NCBI GenBank assembly: GCA_037142615.1 | Contig: JBAXAI010000010.1 | Location: 32,001-96,000, forward strand | DNA length: 64,000 bases | From: Spirochaetales bacterium | GTDB lineage: Bacteria > Spirochaetota > Spirochaetia > JABEVK01 | Reading direction: 5' to 3' | Shown: positions 31,265 through 64,000 of the stretch, piece after piece | Layout: the number at the start of each line of letters is the position of its first letter | How positions within the stretch are numbered: the first letter of the stretch is position 1 | Position numbers and translations under genes: made by a program | Notes under the pieces: model-generated | Databases searched by the model: none | Seen by the model: only the letters and a program-made list of their open reading frames with translations | What the model was told of the DNA's origin: nothing

Positions 31265-32398
31265 CTACTTGCTACTAACCGAACTTCTGAACGCTTCGAC
31301 TTCCCAGCTGACGATAAAATCGATGGCGGGCTTGGTCATAAAAAGGGGGCCGCCGAAAGAGGGGCTGGCCACGGCGATCTGAACGGCGTCGAGGAGCAGT
31401 TGTTGGGCCTGCCCAGCGGCCTTGGCGTTGGGGCCGAGGCAAAACCCGCCCAAGCCTTTGGCCAGCACGGCTCGCGGGGCTTTGCCGTACTTTTGTTTGT
31501 AGTCGGCAAAGGCGCGCGGAAGCTCGCCCACCGCATCGACCCGCACGGGTGACACCCCCATATAAACGATGTGGTCGGGGGTAAAGGCCGACGACAGCGG
31601 CCCAAACGCCGCTTCGCTTTCGGCCAGCGCCAGCACCGACTTGGCCGTTGACCGGGCGACAAACGCCACCTCGGTGCCGAGTTCTTGCCTCGCCAAGGGG
31701 GCCAGGGCCTGCAAAAAGGCGATTTCGGCCAAGGCGTCAACGCCGGCGGGGGTCAGGTCGGCCTTGAACTTGAGCTCGCGTTCCAGATCGGCCAGCAATG
31801 TGCGGTAGGTATCGCGGATCTCGGCAGGCGAATTGCCGGCCACCACAAGGCCGTGGTTCTGCAAAAAGATCACCGAAGGCGCCTTCCCGTGGGCCTTTTG
31901 GTAGGCCTCGAGGGCATCCTTGACGACCTTGGACAGCACGTAGCCCGGGTCGACGAGCGGGATCCACACCGCCACGGCACCAAACAGACGGTCGAACGCC
32001 GCCTTGCCGTTTTGCCCGCAGGTGAGCGCGTTGACGAGGGTCGGGTGCGTGTGCACCACGTAGGTGAAAGGCAGCATGTCGTGCAGCAGGGTCTCGACGC
32101 TGGGGCGTTTAGCCTCTTCGCCGGGCAACCGCGCGGCCATCAGGCACTCGAGCACCTGCTTTTCGCGCAAAGCCGTGTCGGCCGAAAAACTTTGGGTCCA
32201 CAGCGCGGCCAGCGCGGCGCGGTCCATTTTCACAAAGCCTTGTTCGCCGATGGTGCCAAGCGCCTGGCCCGAGCCCTTGACCCATAGCGTGGTCTTGGTC
32301 TTGTACGAGGTGTTGCCGCCACCAGCGATCACGTACTCGGTCCGGGTGCCGTAGTGATTCGAGAGGGCGATCAGGCCCTCGAGTTCTTGACTCATCAT
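31265..32398 (-). CDS. Class II aldolase, stand-alone RhaE-type domain (no fused SDR)
   Basis: GGGNTSYK, VKGSG, RPSVETLLH, VHTHP, LQNHGL, TPDH, WEVE. Confidence 0.85.
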   Translation of the reverse strand: MMSQELEGLIALSNHYGTRTEYVIAGGGNTSYKTKTTLWVKGSGQALGTIGEQGFVKMDRAALAALWTQSFSADTALREKQVLECLMAARLPGEEAKRPSVETLLHDMLPFTYVVHTHPTLVNALTCGQNGKAAFDRLFGAVAVWIPLVDPGYVLSKVVKDALEAYQKAHGKAPSVIFLQNHGLVVAGNSPAEIRDTYRTLLADLERELKFKADLTPAGVDALAEIAFLQALAPLARQELGTEVAFVARSTAKSVLALAESEAAFGPLSSAFTPDHIVYMGVSPVRVDAVGELPRAFADYKQKYGKAPRAVLAKGLGGFCLGPNAKAAGQAQQLLLDAVQIAVASPSFGGPLFMTKPAIDFIVSWEVEAFRSSVSSK

Positions 32399-50972: not shown

Positions 50973-51788
50973 TTACACCCAGCGCTCCCGCAGCAATTCC
51001 ATCATGTGCACGTTGAGCTCCCACTGTTCGGCAACGGGTTGGGCCGTGTACGGGAGCGCCGGCATGTACGGCGCCGGGCCAAACTCGGGCGTCACGGTGA
51101 AGGTGGCAGCCCCGGCCTGCTGGTGACGTGTGAACACTTTGTCCCACCAAGTGAGGTGTGCCTCGACGGCCGGCTGCCACTCGGGAGCCCTGGGATCGCT
51201 CACCTGGGGGCCTTGGGCGTGACCCACCCGGGCGTGCAGGTGGTCGGTGCGTTCTATGGCCAGCGCCAGCGACTCGGCCTGGTCTTCAAGCAGCGATTCG
51301 GACACGTTGCACCAATGCGAAAAGTCGGCCGTGAGGCGCAGTTGCGGGTCGTCTCGCAAAAAACCGGCGGTGACGGCGGCCGCGTACGCGAACTTGGCCC
51401 TGTGGGTCTCGTGCACGATTTTGACACCGGTTTGAGCCGAAACCTCGGCCGCCACGTCGAGGATGCGGCGGTTGAGCTCGGCCGGGAACCAGTCCCTCCC
51501 CGTCTGCGAATTGATGAACAACGGCTTGGCGGCCGCAACCCACTCGAGGTGCGCCCGGTACTCGCGCAGGTGAGCCAGGGGGTCGGCCGTGGTCGTCTCC
51601 CAATGTTGGCCGATCAACTGTAGCCCCTGCGCTGCCAGCGCCCCGAGAATCTCCTCGGTGCCCTTGCGGTCGTCGAGCGGTAGGCTGCACTCGACCCCGT
51701 GGAAGCCCGCTTGGCGAACCTTGCGCGCAAAGTCTGCCCACGAAAGGCTTTCCGAGCCCCAGCGTGGGCAGAAGAACTGAAGTTCCAT
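50973..51788 (-). CDS. Sugar phosphate isomerase/epimerase-like TIM barrel (AP_endonuc_2)
   Basis: HETHR, TADFSHW, HLHARVG, TPEFGP metal-ligand pattern; starts 4 nt after the methyltransferase stop. Confidence 0.8.
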   Translation of the reverse strand: MELQFFCPRWGSESLSWADFARKVRQAGFHGVECSLPLDDRKGTEEILGALAAQGLQLIGQHWETTTADPLAHLREYRAHLEWVAAAKPLFINSQTGRDWFPAELNRRILDVAAEVSAQTGVKIVHETHRAKFAYAAAVTAGFLRDDPQLRLTADFSHWCNVSESLLEDQAESLALAIERTDHLHARVGHAQGPQVSDPRAPEWQPAVEAHLTWWDKVFTRHQQAGAATFTVTPEFGPAPYMPALPYTAQPVAEQWELNVHMMELLRERWV

Positions 51789-51792
51789 GGTG

Positions 51793-52869
51793 CTACTTCG
51801 ACCCGCAGCCGCAGGTGGTGAAGGCCATCACCTTGGCCATGATGGTCTTTTCGTAGCCCGGCATCGAGAGCACGTCGCATTCGCTGCCAATGATGAACGG
51901 GTGGCCCGAGGCTTTGAGTTTGCTTTCAATCTCGCACACCAGGTCGGGAATGCCGCTCAAGGGGACCTCTTCGTCGGAATAGAACTTCTTGGTAGGGAGG
52001 TTGCCGTACAGCACCGTCGTCTTGGGCACCAAGGGCTCGGCCTCCCACAGCTTGACCGGGCTGCCGAAGCTGATGATCACCGGGTCGAGCACCGCAAACG
52101 AGGCGATCATCTCGGGCGTGAGCGAGCCGCAGTCGTGGAAAATCAGGTCGGTGCCGTGCTGGTTGAACAACGCTTTGAGCCTCAGGTTGGGCTCGATGAC
52201 GAAGGTTTGGTACACGGTGCCACCCTCGGCAATCTGCTTGGGTGAAAAATACACGAGGTTGGCCGCGGGTTCGCACAAAAAGATGGCTTTGGCACCGGCC
52301 TTGATCTGCGCCAGCACGCAGGCGTGCACGGTCTTTTCGCACAGGTCCATCAGCGACGCCAGCAGCCCGACTTCGTCGTCGTCCTCGGGCGCGACACCAC
52401 TGCCCGCCATGTAGATGGGCGTGATGGGGTCTTTCATCAGCTTGGTCATCAGCGAGAACGGGCCGATGCTCATGCCGATGGGCACTTCCTTGCCCCCAGC
52501 CGCGAACGCCTTGGCAATCGCCGCCAGCGAGTCGCAGTTGGCCTTGATGCGCGGCGAGCCAAGCACATCCATGGCAGCCACCTTGGCCACCAACGCGGGG
52601 TCGGGCTTGTCGTGAAAATGGTAGGTGGGAATGGCGGCCGCCGCAACGCCCATGGTGCGCAGCATCACGTCTTTTTCGAGCGTGAGGTCCATGATGGGCA
52701 GCGCCAGCGGGCTATCGAAGCGGCGGGCGGTTTCGAGCATCACTTCGGCCAGGCGTTTGCCGTCGAGCAGAATGGCTTCGGGGTCCGATTTTTCGTGCAG
52801 GACGAGATGCGTCGCCACGGGCAACCGTTTTCCGGAAGCTGCGAGCGAGAGATAAAACGATCGGTCCAT
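51793..52869 (-). CDS. Uroporphyrinogen decarboxylase-fold corrinoid methyltransferase (MtaA/CmuA-like)
   Basis: GPFS, EPAA, Zn ligands FHDCG and SECD, LYGNL; follows the corrinoid protein. Confidence 0.8.
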   Translation of the reverse strand: MDRSFYLSLAASGKRLPVATHLVLHEKSDPEAILLDGKRLAEVMLETARRFDSPLALPIMDLTLEKDVMLRTMGVAAAAIPTYHFHDKPDPALVAKVAAMDVLGSPRIKANCDSLAAIAKAFAAGGKEVPIGMSIGPFSLMTKLMKDPITPIYMAGSGVAPEDDDEVGLLASLMDLCEKTVHACVLAQIKAGAKAIFLCEPAANLVYFSPKQIAEGGTVYQTFVIEPNLRLKALFNQHGTDLIFHDCGSLTPEMIASFAVLDPVIISFGSPVKLWEAEPLVPKTTVLYGNLPTKKFYSDEEVPLSGIPDLVCEIESKLKASGHPFIIGSECDVLSMPGYEKTIMAKVMAFTTCGCGSK

Positions 52870-52883
52870 GGGACGCTCCTTGG

Positions 52884-53516
52884 TCAGCTGACGAGTTCGA
52901 TGGCCTTGTCGCCAGCCGAAGCGGCGTCGGCCGTGTACGCGTCGGCTCCGATGCTGGCGCAGAAGCTGTCGGTGATGGGGGCACCACCGATCATCACCTT
53001 GACCTGCTTGCGCACGCCGGCGGCTTCGAGGGCTTCAATGACGGTCTTCATTTCGTTCATGGTGGTCGTCAACAGCGCCGAGAGCGCCACGATCTGGGGC
53101 TTGTGCTCGTGCACGGCAGCCACAAACTTTTCCGCCGAGACGTCGACGCCGAGGTCGATCACTTCGAGGCCTTTGCCTTCCATCATCATGCGCACCAGGT
53201 TCTTGCCGATGTCGTGCAGGTCGCCTTTGACGGTACCGAGAATCACCTTGCCGGTGGCTTTGACTCCGGCTGTCACCAAATAGGGCTTGAGCAGTGCGGT
53301 GCCCTGATTCATGGCGCGGGCGGCGATGAGCACTTCGGGCACGTAGACCTCGTTGCGCTTGAACTTGCCGCCGATGATGTTCATGCCGGCCATCAGGCCG
53401 TCTTCGAGAATGCTCTTGGCCGCAATGCCCTGGTCGATGGCCTGCTGCACCAGCTCTTTCACTTCTTTGGCTTTACCCTTCTGCAAGAAGGTGGAAATGT
53501 CGTCGAGAATTGCCAT
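52884..53516 (-). CDS. Corrinoid (B12-binding) protein, MtaC/MttC-like
   Basis: GDLHDIGKNLV (DxHxxG), SALLTTT, IGGAP; N-terminal four-helix cap. Confidence 0.95.
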   Translation of the reverse strand: MAILDDISTFLQKGKAKEVKELVQQAIDQGIAAKSILEDGLMAGMNIIGGKFKRNEVYVPEVLIAARAMNQGTALLKPYLVTAGVKATGKVILGTVKGDLHDIGKNLVRMMMEGKGLEVIDLGVDVSAEKFVAAVHEHKPQIVALSALLTTTMNEMKTVIEALEAAGVRKQVKVMIGGAPITDSFCASIGADAYTADAASAGDKAIELVS

Positions 53517-53551
53517 GCTATTCCTCCGTTTATCGTCCGTTTCTTCTGTTC

Positions 53552-53604
53552 AGCTTAAAGCAAGCGGTGACTGCCGTATTGCACTCCCTTACGCTTTTTG
53601 GGAC
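53552..53604 (-). promoter_or_regulatory. Putative PocR-AraC operator/promoter of the corrinoid protein operon
   Basis: GTCCCAA-N13-GTGCAA-N21-TAAGCT. Confidence 0.75.
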
Positions 53605-54863
53605 AAATTGCGGTTCGTGAGCCAGGCTGCCAGGCCCGCCGTAGGCAAGACCACAGCCCGGCTGCGGAGTTTCTGGTACGCCGCCAAGCCGGGGCCGCCG
53701 GTAAAGTCGCGCAGGGCCATGGGTTGGTCTTCCAAAAGGACCAGTTCGCGGGCTTCGGCGGCCGCCTCGAGGTTGCGCAGGTTTTGGGCACCGACCACCA
53801 GGTTGCCGACGATCACCAGGTCGGCCTCGCGCACCAAACGGCAGTTGTCGGCGTGGGCCGTGTCGGAAAGGGGTGAGAACGGCGGCGAGACCACGCTGAC
53901 CAAGTCGTAGACGCCGGCCACGTACAGGTCGCTGTCGCCGGGGCTGAGCACACCGGTCGACACCTGAAAGTCACCTTCGGCCAGCTCGCGAAGCACCGCC
54001 GAGGCCGCCCCGCCGCCGCCGATCACGTGGATGCGGGGTGCCGTGAGGCCGGGGTCGGTTCCCCTCAAGTGAAAATCGAACTGACCGGTGGCAGGATTGA
54101 CGTACACCCGCACCTGAACTCCGTAAGCCGCCTCGAGGTTACCCGGCGTGAAAACCTCACTGGGGGTCCCTTGAGCCAGGACTCGGCCTTCGGCCAACAG
54201 CACAACCCGGGTGCAATACCGTGCGGCCAACCGCAAATCGTGCACGGCTGCCACGATGGTTTTTCCTTCGGCGGCCAGAGTTTGCGCGTAGCGGAAGGTC
54301 TGCTGCTGGTGGCTCAGGTCGAGGCTCGCGCTGGGCTCATCGAGCAGCAGCACCGGCGTTTGCTGCGCCAGCACCTTGGCAAACAGCACGCGCTGGCGCT
54401 CGCCGCCCGACATCTGGTCGAGGGGCTGCAACGCCAGCGCCTCGGTCGCGGTGAACGCCATGGCCTGGGCCACCGCGCGGCGGTCGGCGGCCGACTCCGG
54501 GCGAAAACGGCCCTGGTGGGGGTAGCGGCCCATCATCACCACGTCGGCGGCCGGGAACGACGAGGTCAGCGCCGTGTCCTGGTGCATCAGCGCCACCCGT
54601 AGCGCGATCTCGCGCGGCGGCAGGCCTCGCTGGGCCTGTGAAGTCAAAGGTTGGCCGAACACCTCTACCTGTCCTTCGAAGGGGATCAAGCCCGCCAAAC
54701 ATCGCAACAGCGTCGACTTGCCCGCACCGTTGGGTCCCAGGATGCCCAGAATCTCGCCGGGGAACACCTGCAGGTCGAGCCCCCGCAACACGGGTTTGTC
54801 GCCTAGGGAGCAATGCAGCCCTTGCACCGAAAGCGCGGGGCTCGAGACGCCTCCGGCGCTCAC
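53589..54863 (-). CDS. btuD: Cobalamin ABC ATPase with C-terminal extension
   Basis: GPNGAGKST, MSGGERQRV, LLDEP, HDL; extra domain IHVIGGGG...GDSD; GTGA overlap. Confidence 0.85.
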   Translation of the reverse strand: MSAGGVSSPALSVQGLHCSLGDKPVLRGLDLQVFPGEILGILGPNGAGKSTLLRCLAGLIPFEGQVEVFGQPLTSQAQRGLPPREIALRVALMHQDTALTSSFPAADVVMMGRYPHQGRFRPESAADRRAVAQAMAFTATEALALQPLDQMSGGERQRVLFAKVLAQQTPVLLLDEPSASLDLSHQQQTFRYAQTLAAEGKTIVAAVHDLRLAARYCTRVVLLAEGRVLAQGTPSEVFTPGNLEAAYGVQVRVYVNPATGQFDFHLRGTDPGLTAPRIHVIGGGGAASAVLRELAEGDFQVSTGVLSPGDSDLYVAGVYDLVSVVSPPFSPLSDTAHADNCRLVREADLVIVGNLVVGAQNLRNLEAAAEARELVLLEDQPMALRDFTGGPGLAAYQKLRSRAVVLPTAGLAAWLTNRNLSQKA

Positions 54864-55900
54864 AGAGTCCCTCCGCGCCGCACACTGCGCAACAGCAAGA
54901 ACAGGAAGTACGGCGCTCCCACCAGCGCGGTCACAATGCCCACGTTGATCTCTTGCGCGCCCAGAGCCATGCGGGCCACGAGGTCGCAGATCACCAGAAA
55001 CGCCGCGCCGCCGAGCGCTGCCGCCGGGACGAGCAGACGATGATCGGGACCCAACAACAAGCGCAGAATGTGCGGCACGATGAGGCCGACAAAGCTGATC
55101 GGCCCGCTGATGCAAACCGCCGAGGCCGTCACCGCCGACACCAGAACCAGCAGAATCAGGCGGGTACGGAACACATCGACGCCAACGGCCTGCGCTTCCT
55201 CTTCGCCCAGCAGCAGAACGTTCAGGTCGCGGGTGAACCACAGCAGCGCAAATACCCCGGTGCCGATGGGCAGAATCACGAGCCCCAGCGATTCCCAGCG
55301 CACGTTGTACAGGTTGCCCATCGACCAAAAGAGGAACTGCGCGATGCTGTCATGGCTGGCAAACGTGAGCACCAGCGACGTGCCGGCCCCGAAAAATGTG
55401 CTCACCGCGATACCGGCCAAAATGAGGGTGAACAGGCCCATTTTGCCGGCCCGAATGGCCAACACAAAAATGATTCCGGCGGCGGTGAGCGAACCCAGCG
55501 ACGCAAACACCGGCAACGCCCACGCGCTGGTGGCGGCAACCCCGAGAGCAATGCTGAGCACAGCGCCAAAACCCGCGCCGCTGGACACACCGATGAGTCC
55601 CGGGTCGGCCAGAGGATTGCGCAACAGGCCCTGCATCACCGTCCCCGCGACCGCCAACGCAGCACCGATCACCACGGCCCCGAGCACGCGAGGCAGGCGC
55701 ACCAGAAAAATGATGGCGTCCCACTTCTGGTCGGGAGGCGGCAACCATCCGGCGGGAAAGCCCAGCCGCGCCAAGATCACCCCGGCCGTGTCGCCCAGCG
55801 GCACCGACACCGACCCGATGGCCGTCGCCACAAGCACCAGCCCCAACAACGCCAACGTCAGAGGAAGCAGAATCCACCACGCCAGGCGGGGGGTATTCAT
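54860..55900 (-). CDS. btuC: Cobalamin ABC permease (FecCD family)
   Basis: RLPR, QGLLRNPLADP, GEEEAQAVGV, FVGLIVPH. Confidence 0.88.
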   Translation of the reverse strand: MNTPRLAWWILLPLTLALLGLVLVATAIGSVSVPLGDTAGVILARLGFPAGWLPPPDQKWDAIIFLVRLPRVLGAVVIGAALAVAGTVMQGLLRNPLADPGLIGVSSGAGFGAVLSIALGVAATSAWALPVFASLGSLTAAGIIFVLAIRAGKMGLFTLILAGIAVSTFFGAGTSLVLTFASHDSIAQFLFWSMGNLYNVRWESLGLVILPIGTGVFALLWFTRDLNVLLLGEEEAQAVGVDVFRTRLILLVLVSAVTASAVCISGPISFVGLIVPHILRLLLGPDHRLLVPAAALGGAAFLVICDLVARMALGAQEINVGIVTALVGAPYFLFLLLRSVRRGGTL

Positions 55901-55913
55901 CGCGGTAGCGGGC

Positions 55914-56861
55914 CTAGCGGAACAGCGCCGGGTAGCCGGCTTTGGCCAGGTCTTCCACCGCGTCGGCCATGTACTGACTGGTCGACTGCAGGTGCTTGTC
56001 TTGCATCACCAGCACCCGTTTGTTCTTGACGGCCTTGAGCCCAGCAAACACGGGGTCGGCCACAAAGTCGGCCAGAAACTTGGCCGCATCGCTGCTGCCG
56101 TCGTAGCTCCAGCTGGGCAACAGGATCACGTCGGGGTCGAGGGCCAACACCTGCTCTTTGCTCACCTGAGGCCAGCCGGACAGGCCAGCCTTGGTGGCGA
56201 CGTTCACCAGCCCGGCTTTTTCGATCAAAGCCTCAAAGCTGGTCCCTTTGGCGTAGGTGCTGCCCCAGAAGCTGTAACTGAGCACGGTGGGTTTGGCGGC
56301 GACGCCCTTGAGCTTGGTGGCCACTGCTGCCAGACGTTTTTCCACCGTGGCAAGCAAGGCCTTTCCCTTGGCGGTTTCACCGGTGACGGCCGCCATCTGG
56401 GTGACGAGCGTGGTCAGCTCGTCGAAATTGTCGGGCGTTTTGAACACGAACACCGGGATTTTGGCCTCGCGCAGGGCAGCGATGAACTCGGGTTCCTTCC
56501 AACTGGCCACGAACACGAGGTCGGGCTGCAACGCGATGATCTTTTCTTTTTCGCCGGCGATTTTGGTGGGAAAGGCCTTGGCCCAGGCAGCGATGTTGGA
56601 AATGCCCGCGTCGGTGGCGAAACTGTCGATGGCCTTGATGCGGCTCTGGTCGACCAGTTCGATGAGGATTTCGTCGGTGGGCAACGTGAGCGAAATGATG
56701 GCCTTGGGAGCGGCGGACAAGGTGATGGCCGTGCCTTGCGCATCCTTGAGCGTGAGCGGGAAAACCTTGTCGGTCGCCCCGGTGCCGGCGGCATTGAGGC
56801 CGACAAGGGTTGTGAGCAGCAGGGACGACAACGCGACCCGGCGCAACAGGTGAGAACTCAT
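55914..56861 (-). CDS. btuF: Cobalamin ABC substrate-binding protein
   Basis: Peripla_BP_2 (TDEIL, EKIIALQPDLV, KEQVLALDPDVI, LKAVKNKRV); downstream of a B12 riboswitch. Confidence 0.88.
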   Translation of the reverse strand: MSSHLLRRVALSSLLLTTLVGLNAAGTGATDKVFPLTLKDAQGTAITLSAAPKAIISLTLPTDEILIELVDQSRIKAIDSFATDAGISNIAAWAKAFPTKIAGEKEKIIALQPDLVFVASWKEPEFIAALREAKIPVFVFKTPDNFDELTTLVTQMAAVTGETAKGKALLATVEKRLAAVATKLKGVAAKPTVLSYSFWGSTYAKGTSFEALIEKAGLVNVATKAGLSGWPQVSKEQVLALDPDVILLPSWSYDGSSDAAKFLADFVADPVFAGLKAVKNKRVLVMQDKHLQSTSQYMADAVEDLAKAGYPALFR

Positions 56862-56870
56862 GGTGAAACT

Positions 56871-56970
56871 CCTATCTCTCGTAGGTTTTCAGTACGGCAC
56901 CGAGGTGAGCGACCTGGCTTTACAGTGGCGGGACCGCGCGGGATTTTCACCCGCTTCCCTCTGCCTCGGC
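56871..56970 (-). ncRNA. Cobalamin riboswitch (compact, class II-like)
   Basis: Minus strand: AGGGAA-GCGGG-TGAAAAT-CCCGC-GCGGTCCCGCCACTGT-AA-AGCCAG; P1 GCCGAGG/CCTCGGT; downstream hairpin CCTA-CGAGAGA-TAGG overlaps the SD. Confidence 0.88.
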
Positions 56971-56988
56971 TGTCTGTCAACACTGTCC

Positions 56989-57041
56989 ATTCAAGCGCAT
57001 TTCGGCGGTGCGTTCTAGCAAAAACCGGGGAATCTTGGGAT
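56989..57041 (-). promoter_or_regulatory. Putative PocR-AraC operator/promoter of btuFCD
   Basis: ATCCCAA-N13-TTGCTA-N21-TTGAAT, same spacing as the other two sites. Confidence 0.6.
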
Positions 57042-57123
57042 TATTGCATCAGGATACGGCACGTGAACGTCACACTTGCCATGGTATCTTGCTCTGGTGA
57101 GGGGGGGGGAGTATCATGACAAT

Positions 57124-57306
57124 ATGGCAACCATGACTGGCATCCAGGTACCTCCCCCTCCAATTCCTAGCAAGGAAGAGAAACATCAGATGACCCTAGA
57201 AGCCCTGAAGAGCATTGACGAGGGTCGAGTGTCCACCGACAAGGAAGCTTCGGCCTGGCTCAGAAGCCTAGGTACCGCCAATCCTCTTCCACGCCCTCAC
57301 AAATGA
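57124..57306 (+). CDS. ParD/CopG-type antitoxin (C-terminal part, no RHH recognisable)
   Basis: TLEALKSIDEGRV...AWLRSLGTANPLPRP; promoter TTGCTC-N17-TATCAT-N6-ATG. Confidence 0.7.
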   Translation: MATMTGIQVPPPPIPSKEEKHQMTLEALKSIDEGRVSTDKEASAWLRSLGTANPLPRPHK

Positions 57307-57512
57307 GCGTTATCTGGTCCAATGAGTCCCTCGAGGATATGGAGCGGATTTACGAGTTTCACGCCGAGTTCAGCGTTCACGTCGCCAGGCGTGTCGTAGC
57401 GATGATCCGAAGAGCAACCAAGTTGCCAACTGTGTTTCCGCAAGTCGGCCGCCCGTGTGATCGGTACATCCCCAGAGACGTCCGGGTCTGGCCTTCCAAA
57501 GAAGACCGCTGA
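57303..57512 (+). pseudogene. Truncated RelE/ParE toxin
   Basis: VIWSNESLEDMERIYEF...FPQVGRP; stops at 69 aa without the C-terminal YR/H strands. Confidence 0.65.
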
Positions 57513-57594
57513 GCTACGGCATCCAAACCTTCTTGGCCCAGCGGGTGCCCTTCGGCCCTCAGGCAACGAAAACTACACTGGCAGTACGGAATTG

Positions 57595-58140
57595 TCAAAT
57601 GCTTTGCGGGAAGTGAGTTAGCAGACAACTCGTGAACGTCACCGTGAGAGAGCCATGGTTGTAGGGGATGCCGTTGGCCTCGCACACTTGGCTGACGAAC
57701 AGCCCGTAAGCCTCCATCGACACGATGGCCTTATCGGGAAAACGGCATGGTTCCGCCGGGCACGGACATTCGGCGCAAAGCGTGCAGGCCCCGGCGCCCA
57801 TGGGCAAACAGTGGGGTACCGTTCCACGCACGTCGCCCACCAACTGGTGAAACCGTTGGTTGTGCAGGGCTTGCGCCGCCTCCATGGACTCGTAGTCGAA
57901 GTCGTCATCAAGCTTGCCGACCGTTTGCACCAGAATGCCCCGCTCGAAGGCAGCCACCTTCCGGGTAGACTCGTCGAGCGTGCCGCAATGGGGCGGGCAG
58001 GTCCAGTTTTTGCCATAGCTGCGGCAGGTGTTGGCGGCGCACATGGAGCGCACCTCGGGCAGAAACTTGAGCGTGGCGACGCTTAGTTCGCCGGCGTCTT
58101 CGAAGCCGTGGTCGCGGGCGAGTTGCAAAAGGGCGGTCAT
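57595..58140 (-). CDS. DUF2284 Cys-rich metal-binding protein
   Basis: C..N.C..YGKNWTCPP, GAGACTLCAEC, CRFP, SMEAYG. Confidence 0.85.
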   Translation of the reverse strand: MTALLQLARDHGFEDAGELSVATLKFLPEVRSMCAANTCRSYGKNWTCPPHCGTLDESTRKVAAFERGILVQTVGKLDDDFDYESMEAAQALHNQRFHQLVGDVRGTVPHCLPMGAGACTLCAECPCPAEPCRFPDKAIVSMEAYGLFVSQVCEANGIPYNHGSLTVTFTSCLLTHFPQSI

Positions 58141-58454
58141 TCCTTGCTGATCCGCATCACCACGTCCTTGGGGAGCGCGAGGACGCAAGCCACTTCGATG
58201 CCTTTGAGGATGGCTGCCGGGACGGGGCAGGCGGCGTGGTGGCAGTGAAGCCTCGCCGCCTTGGCCACCGTCGAACTACCCCATTTGCCGAGCACTTCGG
58301 TATAGCCATCGAGTTCCTGCAGGTCGGCCTCCATGGCCTTAATGGCCTCGCAGTCGGAGGTGAGGCTGACTTTGACCTGCAGGTCGTCATCGGCGACGGC
58401 CGTGATTTCGGTGGTGAACCCGCAGATTCCAGGTTCAACGTGCACGTGTGCCAT
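58137..58454 (-). CDS. DUF6951 family protein
   Basis: PGICGF, SDC, HCHHAACPVPAAILKGIEVA..LALP. Confidence 0.75.
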   Translation of the reverse strand: MAHVHVEPGICGFTTEITAVADDDLQVKVSLTSDCEAIKAMEADLQELDGYTEVLGKWGSSTVAKAARLHCHHAACPVPAAILKGIEVACVLALPKDVVMRISKE

Positions 58455-58465
58455 GGACTTCTCCT

Positions 58466-59668
58466 TTACGACCCACCGGCTTGTTGGTTTCCCGCTTGCC
58501 GGAACTTGCCCGGCGACTGGCCGGTGACTTTCTTGAACACCCGGTTGAAGTAGCTTTGGTCCTCAAACCCGACCAGACCCGCGACGACCACCAAGGGGAT
58601 GGAGCGGTCGGCCAGCAGGCGTTTGCTTTTTTCGATGCGCACGTCGCTCAAAAAGGCGACAAAACTGGTCTTGAGCTCTTCTTTGAACACCCGGCTGAAA
58701 TAGCTGGGGCTCAGGTACACCTGCGCGGCCACCGCTTCGAGCGACAGTTTTTGCGCGTAGTTCAGCCGGATGTAGCGCACGGCCTTCTGGATGATGTCGG
58801 CGTGCTTGACGGCCTTGAGCACGAACATGCAGTCGGCGAAGCGGCGCACCACGCGCGCCAAAATGGTCTCGAGGTCATCGATGCTGCGGGCCAACTGAAG
58901 GCGCTGCATCCAGTTCTCGCTGATACCGAACACCTCTTCGGCCGACGCGCCGCCCTCGACCGCCGCCCGAGAAAGCAACACCAGCAACTCTTGCGCCCGC
59001 AGGCGCACGGTGGCGATCTTTTGACCTGAGAAGAAGAACACGTGGCCCAAAATGTCGTTCACCAGCGCGCGGGCTTCGTCGTGGTTGCCGTTCGAAAGCA
59101 GAGCGATGAGCTCTTTTTCTTTTTCGAACGGGTACGTGGGCGGAAGTTCGGCGCCGGTGTCGGGGTACCAACTGGTGGGCCTTTGCAACGGCTGGGGCTC
59201 GGCTTCGGGCGCCAGTCGGTGGCGCAGTTCGGCCACCAGGCGGTAGAGCACCTCGGCGAGCGCCGTCGCACGCGCGGGCTGCAGGTAGGGAACCAGACGC
59301 AGCTCGTCTTCCAACTGATCCAACCCTTTGAGCTTGAGGTCGGTAAGCATTTCCTCGGGTTCCAGCAGCAGAACTGGGCCGCCAACCACCACCGCTTGGA
59401 CTTCGGCGTTCACAGTCAACGGTATAGACCAATGGAGCAAATTGTTGGGGCAAAAGTAGATGTACTTGCCACCGAAGCGCTCGGCCTGGTAGGCGCCGTA
59501 CTGGTGGGCCTTGCTGCACTCCGACCGGTGCCCGGGCAGAGCGTGCTGCATAGCGCGGCAAAACCGGCACCCCCCCGCTTGGCCGAGCTGGTCCTTGTCA
59601 AACACTTGGCAGTCGACGCCGCAGGCTTCGCGGTAACTGCGAACCAGGTTCTCCAGTTCAGTCGTCAT
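58466..59668 (-). CDS. PocR ligand-binding domain + AraC HTH regulator
   Basis: CRFC...C...YFCPNNL...VVGGPVL (PocR cysteines); YLSPSYFSRVFK, GFEDQSYFNRVFKK. Confidence 0.9.
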   Translation of the reverse strand: MTTELENLVRSYREACGVDCQVFDKDQLGQAGGCRFCRAMQHALPGHRSECSKAHQYGAYQAERFGGKYIYFCPNNLLHWSIPLTVNAEVQAVVVGGPVLLLEPEEMLTDLKLKGLDQLEDELRLVPYLQPARATALAEVLYRLVAELRHRLAPEAEPQPLQRPTSWYPDTGAELPPTYPFEKEKELIALLSNGNHDEARALVNDILGHVFFFSGQKIATVRLRAQELLVLLSRAAVEGGASAEEVFGISENWMQRLQLARSIDDLETILARVVRRFADCMFVLKAVKHADIIQKAVRYIRLNYAQKLSLEAVAAQVYLSPSYFSRVFKEELKTSFVAFLSDVRIEKSKRLLADRSIPLVVVAGLVGFEDQSYFNRVFKKVTGQSPGKFRQAGNQQAGGS

Positions 59669-61247
59669 CACCGGGATCCTCCGGGAACAGCATAGCCTCG
59701 GCGAAAGCCATTTGGAACTCGGGTTCGGCCGAAAGATCGACGGCGGCGGTGGCCTTGGCAATGGCCAGGGCCCGGTCGAGGGCCAGCGGCTCTGCAAGTA
59801 CAGCGAGCGCTCCCTTGAGCGCGGTGTTGCCCGAGGGCACCACTTTCCCCCGAAGGGCTTGCGGAAGCAGACCAATGGCAAGCGCCGACGCCGGCCGCAA
59901 AAAGGTTCCAAAGCCGCCAGCCAGGTGCACGCGCGAAATCTGCTCCAGGGCGACGGCGCTCTTGAGGCACAGAACTTCGATGCCGGCGGCGATGGCCCCC
60001 TTGGCCAGCTGCAGCTGACGGATATCGGCCTGGCTGAGGCACACCGGCGAGGCGGCGTCGGGGAAGAAATCGTCGCCTTCAGCCAGCTCCAGATACCCGG
60101 TTTCGTCGAGTTGGCCGCCCCGACGGAGGGCGGCCGCCAGGTCGAGCAGGCCCGAGCCGCAGATGCCGGTCAGGGGCTTGTCGCCAATCGTGGTGTACCA
60201 AAACTCGCCGGCCGTATCACCGGTGGCCGAGGTCCAGCCCGCATGGTCGAGCGCTCCGGGTACGCCGGGACAGCCGTGGGCAATCTGCGCGCCTTCGAAG
60301 GCCGGGCCGGCGGCGGTGGCTGTGGACTTCATTCCGTGGCGGTTGCCGAGCACCATTTCGCCGTTGGTACCGATATCGAGCAGCAGCTCCAACTCTTCGG
60401 CCTGGTCGAGCCCGGTGGCAAGCACCCCGGCCGTGAGGTCGGCCCCCACAAACGCCGAAATGCCGGGCAGAAGTTGCACGGTGCAAGTGGCAGGAAGCGC
60501 AAGGCCCAACGACGGAGCAGGCGTGACTCTCGGCTCCAGAAACACCGGCCGGAAGGGAACCCTGGCCATGCCCGTGGGATCGGCCCCGGCGAACAGGTGT
60601 AGCATCACGGTGTTGCCCGCGACCACGATCCCATCGAGCTCCGAAGGCATGCGCCCGGCGGCGTCGAGCTGCTCGGTGATCAAGTTTTGGATCTGCCCCG
60701 CGACCGCGCGACGCATGGCCTCGAGGGCCTCGGGGTGATCGATCACCGACTGGATGCGCGCCACCACGTCGGAACCCCAGGTTTTTTGGGCGTTGGCGGC
60801 GGTGCGCACCGAAAGCACCCGGCTGGCGGCCACATCGACCAGGGCGACTGCCAGGGTGGTGGTACCGATATCGACCGCCACGCTCAGCGGTCGGCCCGAA
60901 GTTTGGGCGGCGGCACGCAGCGCCGGGTCAACGTCAATCGTCAACTGCTCCTGCGGCACGGCGATGCCGTCGTCCCCCGCAGCCAGTTCCACCCACCCTT
61001 CATGCTCAAAACGCGCCAAGCACGCCAAACGCACACCGCGAGCCCGCTCGACCTCGCTCAGGTGACGCAGTTCCAGCGGGTCCGCGAGGCTCAACGGCGA
61101 GGCAGCGACCGCGGAAGAGGGACAGACCTCGACGCGGCACTTGCCGCACGAGCCTCGGCCCGCGCAGGGAGCCCTCAAAGCGTGATCGTTCCCCCGAAGC
61201 ACTTCGAGGAGGGTCTGGCCGGCCTGGCCGTGGACGCGAAGGTTCAT
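59658..61247 (-). CDS. Reductive activator of corrinoid enzymes (RACE/RACo, ASKHA ATPase with 2Fe-2S domain)
   Basis: CAGRGSCGKC...RLAC, DIGTTT, GSDVVARI, FVGAD, DIGTNGE, AGPAFEG, GICGSG, LAGGFG. Confidence 0.93.
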   Translation of the reverse strand: MNLRVHGQAGQTLLEVLRGNDHALRAPCAGRGSCGKCRVEVCPSSAVAASPLSLADPLELRHLSEVERARGVRLACLARFEHEGWVELAAGDDGIAVPQEQLTIDVDPALRAAAQTSGRPLSVAVDIGTTTLAVALVDVAASRVLSVRTAANAQKTWGSDVVARIQSVIDHPEALEAMRRAVAGQIQNLITEQLDAAGRMPSELDGIVVAGNTVMLHLFAGADPTGMARVPFRPVFLEPRVTPAPSLGLALPATCTVQLLPGISAFVGADLTAGVLATGLDQAEELELLLDIGTNGEMVLGNRHGMKSTATAAGPAFEGAQIAHGCPGVPGALDHAGWTSATGDTAGEFWYTTIGDKPLTGICGSGLLDLAAALRRGGQLDETGYLELAEGDDFFPDAASPVCLSQADIRQLQLAKGAIAAGIEVLCLKSAVALEQISRVHLAGGFGTFLRPASALAIGLLPQALRGKVVPSGNTALKGALAVLAEPLALDRALAIAKATAAVDLSAEPEFQMAFAEAMLFPEDPGDDD

Positions 61248-61253
61248 CGTCAC

Positions 61254-61306
61254 AGCCTAGCGCCCGCCGCGCGGACTGTCTTGCACATTGGCTTTATTCT
61301 TGGGAC
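61254..61306 (-). promoter_or_regulatory. Putative PocR-AraC operator/promoter of the RACE operon
   Basis: GTCCCAA-N13-GTGCAA-N21-TAGGCT-N6-ATG. Confidence 0.75.
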
Positions 61307-62313
61307 TTTTCGGGCAAGGTCGGCACGTAGATGTAGCCCGGATCGGTTTTCTGTTTTTTGCGGATTTCGAACAAGAGCCTCAGCCCGGCCCAGAGGCTTT
61401 TCTGGCTCGGGGGCAGATCGTAGGCAATGGCCCGGTGCAGCTTACCCTCGTTGTAGCACGGGACGGCCGCGTACATGTGGTGCGCGGTGTGATAGTTCAT
61501 GTTCCAGTACAACCATCGGGTGATGGGGCCACCGGTGAACGAATGGCACACCAGCCGCCAGTCGGGGGTGCTGTCGCCCAGACCGGTGTGCTGCATGGCC
61601 CCGCAGAGTTTGCCGTACCAGCTGGCAAAGAACACCCCAAAGGTCACCAGGTAGATGAGCACCCAGAGTTGAAAGTAAATGAAGACTCCCAGCAGGATCA
61701 GATGGCTGAGCAGCATGAATCTCGCCCACCCCACCATTTGCCCTCGGCGCTTGTCGCCCTTCTCAAACAGGGGATTCCAAAAGAAGTAGTCCGCGTCGGC
61801 TTTACCGAAGGTGTGCATCACCGCCAAACCGAACCACGACCGAAACTGAGTCCAGTCAAAGGTGAACCACTGCAGCAGGTTCCAGAAGTTCAGTTTGTCT
61901 TTCACCGGGCCCTGCACGACTTCCTTGTCGGGGTCCTTGAACACCGTCAGTTGGTGATGCAGCCCGTGGCTGGCGCGAAAGTGGACGGGGTTGTTCCAGG
62001 TCATCCAGCAGAACAAATGGTAGAAAAATTCGTTCAGGGCCTTGGTCTTGAACATGGTGCCGTGGCTGAGTTCGTGAACCCCGGCGGCCATGCTGAAGAA
62101 CATGAGGAAGGTCGAGTGGACGTAGCAGGCGACGACCATGGGCACCCACATCTGATTGACAAAGAAATAGAGCGCAGCCGATATCGTGACGACCCAGCCC
62201 AGCAGAAAGCTCAGCGTCTTGCGTAGCCCCTTGAAGTCGCTCTTGGTGGCCAGCTCCTTGAGCAGCGCCTTGTCGACCGGAGTCCGGTACCACTCGATTT
62301 TTTTGGGATCCAT
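61294..62313 (-). CDS. Membrane di-iron oxygenase, fatty-acid-desaturase superfamily, MocD (rhizopine oxygenase)-like
   Basis: His boxes HELSH, HGLHH, QH, NYHTAHH; WYRTPV...SD N-terminus and LYWNMNYH resemble MocD. Confidence 0.8.
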   Translation of the reverse strand: MDPKKIEWYRTPVDKALLKELATKSDFKGLRKTLSFLLGWVVTISAALYFFVNQMWVPMVVACYVHSTFLMFFSMAAGVHELSHGTMFKTKALNEFFYHLFCWMTWNNPVHFRASHGLHHQLTVFKDPDKEVVQGPVKDKLNFWNLLQWFTFDWTQFRSWFGLAVMHTFGKADADYFFWNPLFEKGDKRRGQMVGWARFMLLSHLILLGVFIYFQLWVLIYLVTFGVFFASWYGKLCGAMQHTGLGDSTPDWRLVCHSFTGGPITRWLYWNMNYHTAHHMYAAVPCYNEGKLHRAIAYDLPPSQKSLWAGLRLLFEIRKKQKTDPGYIYVPTLPEKSQE

Positions 62314-62347
62314 GTTGATTCTCCTTCTTGAACCAAGGCTCTCGCCT

Positions 62348-64000
62348 CTAGGCCGTCTTGAACTTCTGGATGGCGCCGTCCAGGTTGCCCGCAATCACTC
62401 CAATGCCGTCGGCCTGCTCCGACACCTGACGGATGGTTCCCGAGATGTCGCTCAGGCCGGTGCCGATTTCGCCGATGTTCGAAACCACCTCTTGCGACAC
62501 GCGCCGAACCTCTCCCATCACCTTTTGAACGGCTCCGCTGGATTGCAGAACCTGAACGGCTTCTTCGGTGATCTTGAGAGAACCCGACTTGAGTTCGCTC
62601 ATCGCCTCGAGCACATGCTGACTCCCCACTTGCATCTCATTCACATTGCCATGGATTTCGCGAACCGAGCGGCTGACTTCGCCAATCCGCCTCGTGATCA
62701 CCTCAAAGGCCTGACTCGTCGTTTCGCGGGTACTGCCAGCCTCTTTCATCTTGCTCAGAATCGTGCGGATGACTCGGGCTATGTCGTCGGAGCTGGTTCG
62801 GGCGGCCTGGGCCAGCTTGGTGATTTCGTCGGCGACCACCGCGAAACCTTTGCCAAACTCTCCGGCGTGCGCAGCCTCGATGGCGGCGTTCATGGCTAGA
62901 ATCTGGGTCTGGCCGGCGATGCCCGAAATTACGTCGGCCATCTCTTGAATCGACCCGACACTCTCGGTGATTTCAGCCACTTTTTCAAAGGCCGCATTGA
63001 AGACCTCGCGACCGCCATCCGCCTCGCGCACCAAGCTTTCGGCCGACCTCTGGTCGCGCTCGGTAAGCAGCGAGATGTTGCCGATCGAGGTGAGCACCTG
63101 GGTCACCGAGCCCACGGAATCCTCGACAAGCGAATTCTGATTCCGGATGGCCAGAGTGAACCGGTCCAAGGCACCCAGAATGTTGTCCATGTCGGACGAA
63201 GACACAGCAATCATGTGGTCCATGGTTTCCATCTGCGAACGAATCGACGACGAGTTGGCCTCGATCTCGACTGAAGAACTGGAGGCTTCGGTTACGGCCC
63301 TGACCAGTTCCTCCCTGAGCGCCAGGTTGTGCCGGGAGGCCTGCTGAATCGTCGACAACGAACCATTCAAACTGTCGAGCAGATCGTCGAGCTTACGCCC
63401 CAGAATTCCGATCTCGTCGCGCCGTTTGAGCCGAAGGCGCTGAGTGAAGTCGCCCGCACTCATCAAAGTGATGTTTTTGTCGACGGCGCGAAACGATAGC
63501 GTGATGCTCCTTGTGAGCGAAAGCGACAGGGTCAAAGTGACAACAAGAAGCAGAATCACCGCTCCAAGACTGATCCAGGTTGCCCTTGACTGCAAGGCGC
63601 TGACTTCGCCAAAAATGACGGCGTCTTTTTCCTTGATGACCTTCACAGTCGTGACAAACAGATCATTGAGGTTCGTTAAGTTGTTAAGCAGGGAACCCGT
63701 GTGGAACATGGCCAACCCGCTGGTGTCGTCGGTATTCTTGAGCAGATTGACGACAATGAAGTCGTCCGAAACCCCTTGGTAAAGTTCCTTGGCGTCGGCT
63801 TCCAAGTCGGCCAAGTTCCCCGCAACCTGCTCGAGCCCGTCGGCCGAAAGGGAACCCAAGTCCTTCACAGCGGTCACGGCCTGCTTGAGAGTCTCGCTGA
63901 CCGTGGGCAACAGGGTTACGGTGTCCATTTCTTTCAAAGCAAGCTGAAAGTTGGCGACCGAATCGCGGAACCTCTTCACTTGCGTTTCAAACCCCGAAGT
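62348..64000 (-). CDS. Methyl-accepting chemotaxis protein (5' end beyond the window)
   Basis: TM helix, HAMP (RRDEIG), ILAMNAAIEAAHAGEFGKGFAVVADEI. Confidence 0.93.
   Translation of the reverse strand, partial: TSGFETQVKRFRDSVANFQLALKEMDTVTLLPTVSETLKQAVTAVKDLGSLSADGLEQVAGNLADLEADAKELYQGVSDDFIVVNLLKNTDDTSGLAMFHTGSLLNNLTNLNDLFVTTVKVIKEKDAVIFGEVSALQSRATWISLGAVILLLVVTLTLSLSLTRSITLSFRAVDKNITLMSAGDFTQRLRLKRRDEIGILGRKLDDLLDSLNGSLSTIQQASRHNLALREELVRAVTEASSSSVEIEANSSSIRSQMETMDHMIAVSSSDMDNILGALDRFTLAIRNQNSLVEDSVGSVTQVLTSIGNISLLTERDQRSAESLVREADGGREVFNAAFEKVAEITESVGSIQEMADVISGIAGQTQILAMNAAIEAAHAGEFGKGFAVVADEITKLAQAARTSSDDIARVIRTILSKMKEAGSTRETTSQAFEVITRRIGEVSRSVREIHGNVNEMQVGSQHVLEAMSELKSGSLKITEEAVQVLQSSGAVQKVMGEVRRVSQEVVSNIGEIGTGLSDISGTIRQVSEQADGIGVIAGNLDGAIQKFKTA

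Follow-up and report, generated by a model that had tools for sequence, protein, structure and literature searches.

A conserved direct-repeat promoter pattern as the predicted operator of a PocR-AraC regulator in an uncultured freshwater Spirochaetales bacterium

Promoter patterns and genes of the window

The window analysed here is a 64,000-nt stretch (positions 32001–96000 of contig C10) of a Spirochaetales genome of 4.27 Mb with 60.8% G+C. On its minus strand it encodes a reductive activator of corrinoid enzymes (RACE), a regulator with PocR and AraC-type domains, a btuFCD operon behind a riboswitch, and a corrinoid protein followed by a methyltransferase. The genome is 96.7% complete, and the DNA runs that contain the stretch come from freshwater and lake metagenomes; among RNA runs, none was listed for positions 51700–61400. 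Two promoters, one before RACE and one before the corrinoid-protein gene, share a pair of boxes at the same spacings. This pattern recurs upstream of orthologous genes in other genomes and probably represents the operator of the local PocR-AraC protein. The RACE site reads GTCCCAA-N13-GTGCAA-N21-TAGGCT (61306–61254, minus strand) and the site of the corrinoid-protein operon, hereafter the mtaC site, reads GTCCCAA-N13-GTGCAA-N21-TAAGCT (53604–53552, minus strand). A third pattern, ATCCCAA-N13-TTGCTA-N21-TTGAAT (57041–56989, minus strand), lies upstream of the riboswitch and btuFCD. The original prediction had placed all three in one PocR-AraC regulon. The strings, spacers and coordinates that it gave are exact in the sequence, and box 1 does fall within the last codons of the upstream gene at both the desaturase and the BtuD fusion. 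The two strong sites consist of the following parts:

61300–61306, minus strand: RACE-site box 1, GTCCCAA, within the last codons of the desaturase gene (KSQE*)
61281–61286, minus strand: RACE-site box 2, GTGCAA, then GAC; score with the independent matrix (described below) 21.1
61254–61259, minus strand: RACE-site predicted −10, TAGGCT, with the conserved ATG 61247 after a further 6 nt
53598–53604, minus strand: mtaC-site box 1, GTCCCAA, within the last codons of btuD (LSQKA*)
53579–53584, minus strand: mtaC-site box 2, GTGCAA, then TACGG; independent matrix 25.1
53552–53557, minus strand: mtaC-site predicted −10, TAAGCT, read from the sequence

The genes and features around these sites, assigned by Pfam unless another source is given, are:

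61294–62394, minus strand: fatty-acid desaturase
59658–61247, minus strand: RACE-type reductive activator (2Fe-2S ferredoxin, RACo middle and ASKHA domains)
58466–59668, minus strand: PocR-AraC regulator, MtaR-like, 400 aa (PocR 2.2e-20, HTH_18 3.8e-22)
58137–58454, minus strand: DUF6951 gene, placed in the same operon by position
57595–58140, minus strand: DUF2284 predicted metal-binding protein, placed in the same operon by position
56861–56985, minus strand: adenosylcobalamin riboswitch aptamer (Rfam RF01482), reaching the gathering threshold at 50.8 bits against 50
55914–56861, minus strand: btuF
54860–55900, minus strand: btuC
53589–54860, minus strand: btuD with a C-terminal extension
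52884–53516, minus strand: corrinoid protein, MtaC-like (B12-binding and B12-binding_2 domains)
51793–52869, minus strand: URO-D family methyltransferase, MtaA-like

The corrinoid protein and the URO-D methyltransferase thus lie 5 kb downstream of the regulator, with RACE upstream of it. A further site of the same layout, GTCCCAG-N13-GTCCAA-N21-TAACCT (C10:114462–114410, minus strand), is found beyond the window, with a ribosome-binding site and one more gene downstream of it:

C10:113009–114379 (window-equivalent about 81009–82379, outside the window): mtaB, methanol:cobalamin methyltransferase (Pfam 1e-155)

This gene closely follows a PIN-domain gene and is separated from the RACE site by about 21 kb. 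In a genome of the same genus (G001) and in locus L088, mtaB is directly upstream of RACE, which indicates that the cluster has been split in the present genome.

Alignment of the sites yielded the family consensus AAnTnCAAAAAAnnnnAAAnTTTTTCAATAC, in which box 1 takes the form GT-n-C-C/A-AA followed by an A-rich tract, and box 2 the form G/T-T-n-CAA followed by T/G-AC. Many sites also hold a TAAG-like element between the boxes. T-n-CAA is common to both boxes and their starts lie 20 bp apart in all 21 aligned sites (a spacing fixed by construction of the alignment), so that the boxes read as same-orientation repeats two helical turns apart. A TAnnnT motif follows box 2 at N21 in 16 of the 21 sites and at N22 in three, any other offset accounting for at most three; in these 19 sites box 2 falls at the predicted −35 position. 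With a 17-nt spacer, the −35 position begins in the last one or two bases of box 2 and holds no good −35 hexamer; in the RACE site it is the final two bases that open it (aaGACA, 17 nt before the −10). The −10 hexamers retain key positions only. Read from these features, the architecture is that of an activator-dependent class II promoter, in which box 2 would occupy and replace the −35 element, ending 21–22 nt before a weak TAnnnT −10. The tandem half-sites at −35 that had been claimed are borne out to the extent that same-orientation repeats stand in tandem and the proximal one abuts the predicted −35.

The RACE promoters have a distinctive start. In three of three cases (61247–61259; L076, about 2975–2990; L021, 12787–12801) the −10 is followed by 6 nt and then ATG, with no room for a ribosome-binding site. 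This conserved arrangement predicts a leaderless RACE message that would start at ATG 61247 rather than at GTG 61253, the start in the list of open reading frames (59658–61253); the conserved ATG was adopted here. Downstream of the TAAGCT −10 of the mtaC site, by comparison, stand a GGAGG ribosome-binding site (53523–53527) and ATG 53516. A reading of the boxes as an RNA hairpin was dropped: the TCCC/GGGA pairing spans 3–4 bp in one site only and is not conserved.

Some loci carry additional repeats. In this genome and in L076, GTGCCGA and GTCCCGA form a further repeat 20 bp upstream, within coding sequence, and in L037 (5762–5820; likewise in L078, L079 and L081) GTCCCTA, GTACAAA and TTTCAA follow one another at 20-bp steps upstream of the regulator gene. 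A third repeat may thus be present in some operators; as a general feature it was rejected, since it occurs in certain loci only.

Recurrence within the genome and conservation in relatives

GTCCCAA-N13-GTGCAA occurs three times in the genome against about 0.07 expected (444 copies of box 1, 1320 of box 2). Taken alone, the pair is not decisive, and the case therefore rests on other genomes. A strict pattern, CCAA-N13-nTnCAA, matched the closest genomes only and failed at most orthologous sites, whose box 1 reads GTACAAA; weight matrices were used instead. The independent matrix was built from 17 sites, all from other genomes, and scanned over 8,530,620 positions of this genome. It placed the mtaC site first (25.1) and the RACE site second (21.1), followed by C21:59563 between unrelated divergent genes (15.8) and by the mtaB site in fourth place (14.8). 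Ranks 1, 2 and 4 genome-wide are thus predicted sites upstream of mtaC-mtaA, RACE and mtaB. The genome-wide scan proposed with the original prediction accordingly recovers its two strong sites at the top.

In the reverse direction, five own-genus sites supplied the matrix and 67 foreign loci (1,465,078 positions) the search space, in which 23 distinct 37-mers scored at least 15. Eighteen of these lie 40–260 nt upstream, in sense, of PocR, corrinoid-protein, RACE or MtaB genes, a zone that comprises 2.2% of the positions. The enrichment appears very large, with the qualification that the loci are related and that A/T-rich intergenic DNA favours the matrix, so that a binomial figure overstates its significance.

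Matrix hits of a different kind were observed at C68:333, C73:836, C55:680 and 2671, C44:27209, C37:5440 and C69:1860. They belong to a repeat that begins ATCTGCCCCAAAT, extends over at least about 65 bases and is probably a mobile-element end or another dispersed repeat.

Relatives of the regulator span 30–87% identity and are encoded in a module in which RACE, PocR-AraC and corrinoid-protein genes are conserved together; in most of them the corrinoid-protein gene follows the PocR gene, and in many loci a site stands directly upstream of the regulator gene itself. Conservation in orthologous loci, which had been set as a test of the motif, was found upstream of PocR-AraC, corrinoid-protein, RACE and mtaB genes, and the pattern is kept across genomes of about 35% and 61% G+C. 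Representative promoters are:

L076 (87% ortholog, same synteny), RACE promoter: GTCCCAA-N13-GTGCAA-N21-TAGGCT-N6-ATG
G001 (same genus), RACE promoter: AATCCAA-N13-TTTCAA-N22-TAGGAT-N6-ATG
G001, mtaC promoter: ATCCCAA-N13-TTCCAA-N22-TATCGT
G001, mtaB promoter: GTGCAAG-N13-TTCCAA-N21-TACGGT
G039 (another family, 46% identity), corrinoid-protein promoter: TTACCAA-N13-GTGCAA-N21-TAGGCT

In L076 both boxes of the RACE site, box 1 included, are unchanged and the spacer from box 2 to the −10 has diverged; in G001 box 1 of the RACE site is AATCCAA. The corrinoid-protein ortholog of G001 is 89% identical and has the same boxes upstream, where box 1 (ATCCCAA) is intergenic, so that coding constraint cannot explain the conservation of box 1 in the present genome. 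G001 also encodes a second PocR-AraC paralog (48% identity; L021, 9882–11255), divergent from mtaB, and box 1 of the mtaB operator there is GTGCAAG, not GTCCCAA.

Regulator, predicted regulon and alternative explanations

The protein encoded at 58466–59668 is the only PocR-domain protein found, no second PocR-domain gene being detected in the genome. It combines an N-terminal PocR domain with a C-terminal AraC-type domain (HTH_AraC matched in two stretches, besides the HTH_18 match). The C-terminal domain matches AraC/MarA/SoxS DNA-binding domains both by PDB sequence search and by Foldseek against the PDB; the PocR domain found no PDB match by either route. Conservation within the regulator is highest in the DNA-binding domain, where identity averages 54% over 13 loci compared with 38% in the PocR domain, which fits a conserved operator. 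Within the PocR domain, C34, C37, C51, H55, C73 and H79 are invariant in 11 regulators of 40–87% identity (alignment A3), and this Cys/His set resembles a binding site for a metal or cofactor. The monomer model has a mean predicted local distance difference test score (pLDDT) of 74; the homodimer prediction, run with two copies of the regulator and alignment A3, returned 'no answer' (score 0.20, mark 0.42).

We consider it likely that the two strong patterns are activator-dependent promoters bearing the operator of this PocR-AraC protein, a relative of MtaR. The claim that they form a PocR-AraC operator holds in the sense that the boxes behave as the operator of the local and only PocR protein, regulation being predicted. 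In the mechanism that we infer for binding, activation, direction of control, effector and transcription starts, two DNA-binding domains would bind in tandem, each with two helix-turn-helix units over about 20 bp. With the PocR domain in its induced state, most likely with methanol, these tandem domains would recruit RNA polymerase. The predicted regulon would comprise three promoters: that of RACE, the regulator, DUF6951 and DUF2284, implying positive autoregulation along with the leaderless RACE message; that of the corrinoid protein and URO-D methyltransferase (mtaC-mtaA); and that of mtaB, which is not part of the window and lies some 21 kb past the RACE site. The three-operon regulon originally proposed stands as far as it links the RACE/regulator operon to the corrinoid-protein/methyltransferase operon; its third member, the riboswitch-btuFCD site, fails with the independent matrix.

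Methanol is the likely effector, judged from which genes carry sites. It is favoured because mtaB, mtaC-mtaA and RACE have them, because the sugar genes of the window (rhamnose isomerase, aldolases, fucose isomerase, kinases) have no upstream site scoring above 8 with the independent matrix, and because no microcompartment shell gene was found. The bacterial microcompartment (BMC) shell domain PF00936 was absent from the matches in this 96.7% complete genome and detected in the control genomes, as was the case for the acetyl-CoA synthase domain PF03598; the host may thus not be an acetogen. A search for PduC was silent in the control genomes and hence uninformative. Among the effectors first put forward, methanol gains from the mtaB site and from the precedent of Eubacterium limosum (PMC13602510), whereas 1,2-propanediol and methyl sugars lose from the missing sugar-gene sites and shell gene.

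The third pattern shares with the strong sites box 1 and the spacings only, and its status as an operator is doubtful. With a matrix that includes own-genome sites it scores 19.3, the best hit outside the training set, and only five positions exceed 18. With the independent matrix it scores −0.8 and its G001 counterpart −10.9. Its box 2 lacks the conserved CAA-TAC, and its supposed −10, TTGAAT, lacks the A at position 2. Box 1 is moreover overlapped by a competing promoter:

57040–57067, minus strand: sigma-70-like promoter TTCACG-16-AATAAT, 9/12 match, with an upstream TG

A similar layout, TTCCCTA-N13-TTTTAT-N22-TTTAAT, precedes the riboswitch in G001, and sites of moderate score stand upstream of cobalamin riboswitches before corrinoid-protein genes in L028 (15.9) and L026 (11.5), indicating that an activator-plus-riboswitch design exists in the family. 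For btuFCD in the present genome such a design is possible, though we would not expect it. That the regulator drives btuFCD in full, with both inducer and low B12 needed, and that 1,2-propanediol or a methyl sugar is the effector, we regard as rather unlikely. The matching box 1 and spacers, the score with own sites, the comparable layouts in G001, L028 and L026, and the rhamnose and fucose genes inside the window speak for it. They are set against the two negative scores, the aberrant box 2 and −10, the rival promoter at 57067–57040, the lack of any site above 8 near the sugar genes, the shell gene not found and the presence of a fourth site at mtaB. The gate requiring inducer and low B12 together, as first envisaged for btuFCD, is consequently unproven.

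Cobalamin riboswitches stand directly before corrinoid-protein genes in L026 (8867–9044), L028 (10721–10871) and L031 (10712–10887); a B12 off-switch before a B12-dependent protein is an unexpected arrangement. Other features of this part of the window include a ParE-like toxin pair between the RACE operon and the riboswitch, whose place is taken in G001 by cobalamin-biosynthesis genes and a cobO-like gene. The C-terminal extension of BtuD, about 170 residues (53589–54100) without a Pfam match, is kept in G001, with 63% identity over 424 residues. Beyond the desaturase lies a chemoreceptor gene. The coordinates of the toxin pair and the chemoreceptor, both assigned by Pfam, are:

57076–57512, plus strand: ParE-like toxin pair
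62348–63979, minus strand: chemoreceptor

The boxes could alternatively be read by a different factor, either a transcription factor that has been passed on together with the module or an alternative sigma factor for which box 2 serves as an unusual upstream element, a possibility to which we assign a low probability. The assignment to the PocR-AraC protein is by co-occurrence only, RACE and corrinoid-protein genes co-occur equally tightly, and the fixed distance of 21–22 nt to the −10 would suit a promoter element too. Sites directly upstream of the regulator gene in many loci are nevertheless the usual sign of autoregulation (in a set of loci gathered by regulator homology), two 20-bp units in the same orientation match what two AraC-type domains would cover, a −35/−10 spacer would be shorter than 21 nt, and the RACE/corrinoid module contains no second conserved regulator gene. 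It is more improbable still that the PocR-AraC protein binds the boxes as a repressor or dual regulator, blocking the −35 as long as no inducer frees it. Box 2 does overlie the −35 position, and some AraC-family members both activate and repress, but promoters with a weak TAnnnT −10 and no recognisable −35 bear the mark of activator dependence. The published work on E. limosum points the same way, since growth on methanol is lost in an mtaR loss-of-function mutant and a foreign core promoter is activated when joined to the upstream region (PMC13602510).

Least credible of all, to the point of being nearly negligible, is a functionless likeness of the two promoter regions arising by chance or neutral shared ancestry. 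As a control, 6000 random pairs of crudely defined upstream regions were drawn from this genome; five pairs had a 7-mer and a 6-mer in exact agreement at the same spacing, and 133 reached 29/53 identities; with about 1000 possible pairs per window, one such match may occur by chance, and the pair in this genome alone is weak evidence. Against a chance origin stand the genome-wide ranks obtained with a matrix from other genomes and the retention of the pattern at widely different G+C contents, the boxes being invariant while the spacers diverge.

Besides the weakness of the single pair, several points tell against the assignment of the boxes to an MtaR-like regulator. The matrix sites were gathered by likeness to the pattern, so that the consensus is partly self-selected, and the related loci are not independent, dereplication having been by exact 37-mer only. 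An unbiased count of 6-mer strand asymmetry in 74 upstream regions placed TCAATA (24 vs 8), TTCAAT, TACAAA and CAATAC in the top 20, a signal that appears noisy though supportive. In the orthologous loci L030, L031, L034, L048, L050 and L056 the best hits are weak (at most 9.2). The activating region of E. limosum, taken from primer sequences in the supplement of PMC13602510, can be read by eye as GTACAGA-N13-TTTCCT, with box 2 overlapping the reported −35 TATCCA and ending 22 nt before the reported −10 TATAAC. This offers a lead towards the family geometry with a degenerate box 2 (TTTCCT), yet a second register 10 nt upstream (GCACAAA-N13-TGACAA) fits about equally well. The published E. limosum promoter pattern (−35, −10 and cre) had no match in the loci collected here or in 401 genomes of the class. 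An MtaB gene, finally, stands beside the module in only 3 of 70 scanned loci, so that parts of the family may have an effector other than methanol; beside the module in relatives, URO-D family genes occur commonly, and the family may serve other methyl donors as well.

Significance and comparison with known systems

The regulator type is already known; the operator consensus and its fixed geometry are new. PocR-AraC regulators are in use as methanol-inducible switches in acetogens, and a full-text literature search found no description of an operator for MtaR-type regulators in the accessible text. PocR-AraC control of methanol methyltransferase operons was itself shown in E. limosum only in 2026 (PMC13602510). 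An operator with fixed geometry lets regulons be read from genomes, and here it located the unlinked mtaB. What emerges is a complete methanol methyltransferase system, predicted to be co-regulated, in an uncultured freshwater host whose genome yielded no acetyl-CoA synthase match. A bolder generalization, which we put forward tentatively and would not presume correct, has three parts. The direct repeat GTnCAAA-N13-TTTCAATAC, 21–22 nt before the −10, would be the general MtaR-type operator across Bacillota, including E. limosum; the conserved RACE-regulator-corrinoid trio would act as a module that activates itself, serves sensing and maintenance and can be combined with varied methyltransferases; and the Cys/His set would be a metal or cofactor site sensing methanol or the corrinoid state. 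If true, the RACE-regulator-corrinoid module would here serve a non-acetogenic freshwater bacterium.

MtaR of E. limosum is a PocR-AraC protein encoded before mtaC1 and required for growth on methanol and for methanol induction; a 50-nt region just upstream of the −35 suffices for methanol induction on a foreign core promoter (PMC13602510). The present regulator shares its domain architecture with MtaR of E. limosum and Acetobacterium woodii, a likeness drawn from published descriptions and not from sequence identity. Further parallels to the E. limosum system are the pairing of regulator and corrinoid-protein genes (mtaR-mtaC1 there, PocR followed by the corrinoid protein in most relatives here), the targets mtaB, mtaC and mtaA, which here carry predicted sites, and an activating region immediately upstream of, or overlapping, the −35. 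In A. woodii a methanol-inducible promoter lies upstream of mtaR, with a second putative start before a B12-binding protein gene (PMC13644212, 2026), so that both systems have a second promoter before such a gene. The mta genes of Sporomusa show methanol-specific induction and are described as 'likely regulated by mtaR' (PMC12456013).

The organization differs from that of E. limosum in that the regulator is here the second gene, behind RACE, and there the first gene of its operon, and in that three promoters here share the methyltransferase genes, mtaB standing at a distance of about 21 kb. A further difference is the host, a freshwater bacterium with a 61% G+C genome that gave no match to acetyl-CoA synthase. 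For E. limosum an inverted repeat, GAAAAT-N7-AATTTC, was predicted, with no binding assay reported in the accessible text (PMC13602510), whereas the comparison made here points to direct repeats; this suggests that the published prediction deserves comparison with the direct repeat.

PocR of Salmonella resembles the present regulator in joining a PocR sensory domain to an AraC DNA-binding domain. In Salmonella enterica, PocR activates cob and pdu in response to 1,2-propanediol. Two binding boxes upstream of the promoter, and positive autoregulation, are also on record for that protein (as summarized in PMC13602510), in parallel with what is predicted here. The system described here differs in its methyltransferase-system targets, in its effector, which is probably methanol, and in a genome in which BMC shell genes were not found.

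In class II promoters of the AraC/XylS family, such as araI1-I2 and XylS at Pm, same-orientation half-sites lie about two turns apart, the proximal one overlapping the −35 of a weak core promoter. The predicted operator differs from these in its box sequences and its period, 20 bp here against 21 bp there, and the dimerization assumed for its regulator is a predicted one. It shares with them same-orientation half-sites; a proximal half-site at the −35 of a weak core promoter would be a further likeness.

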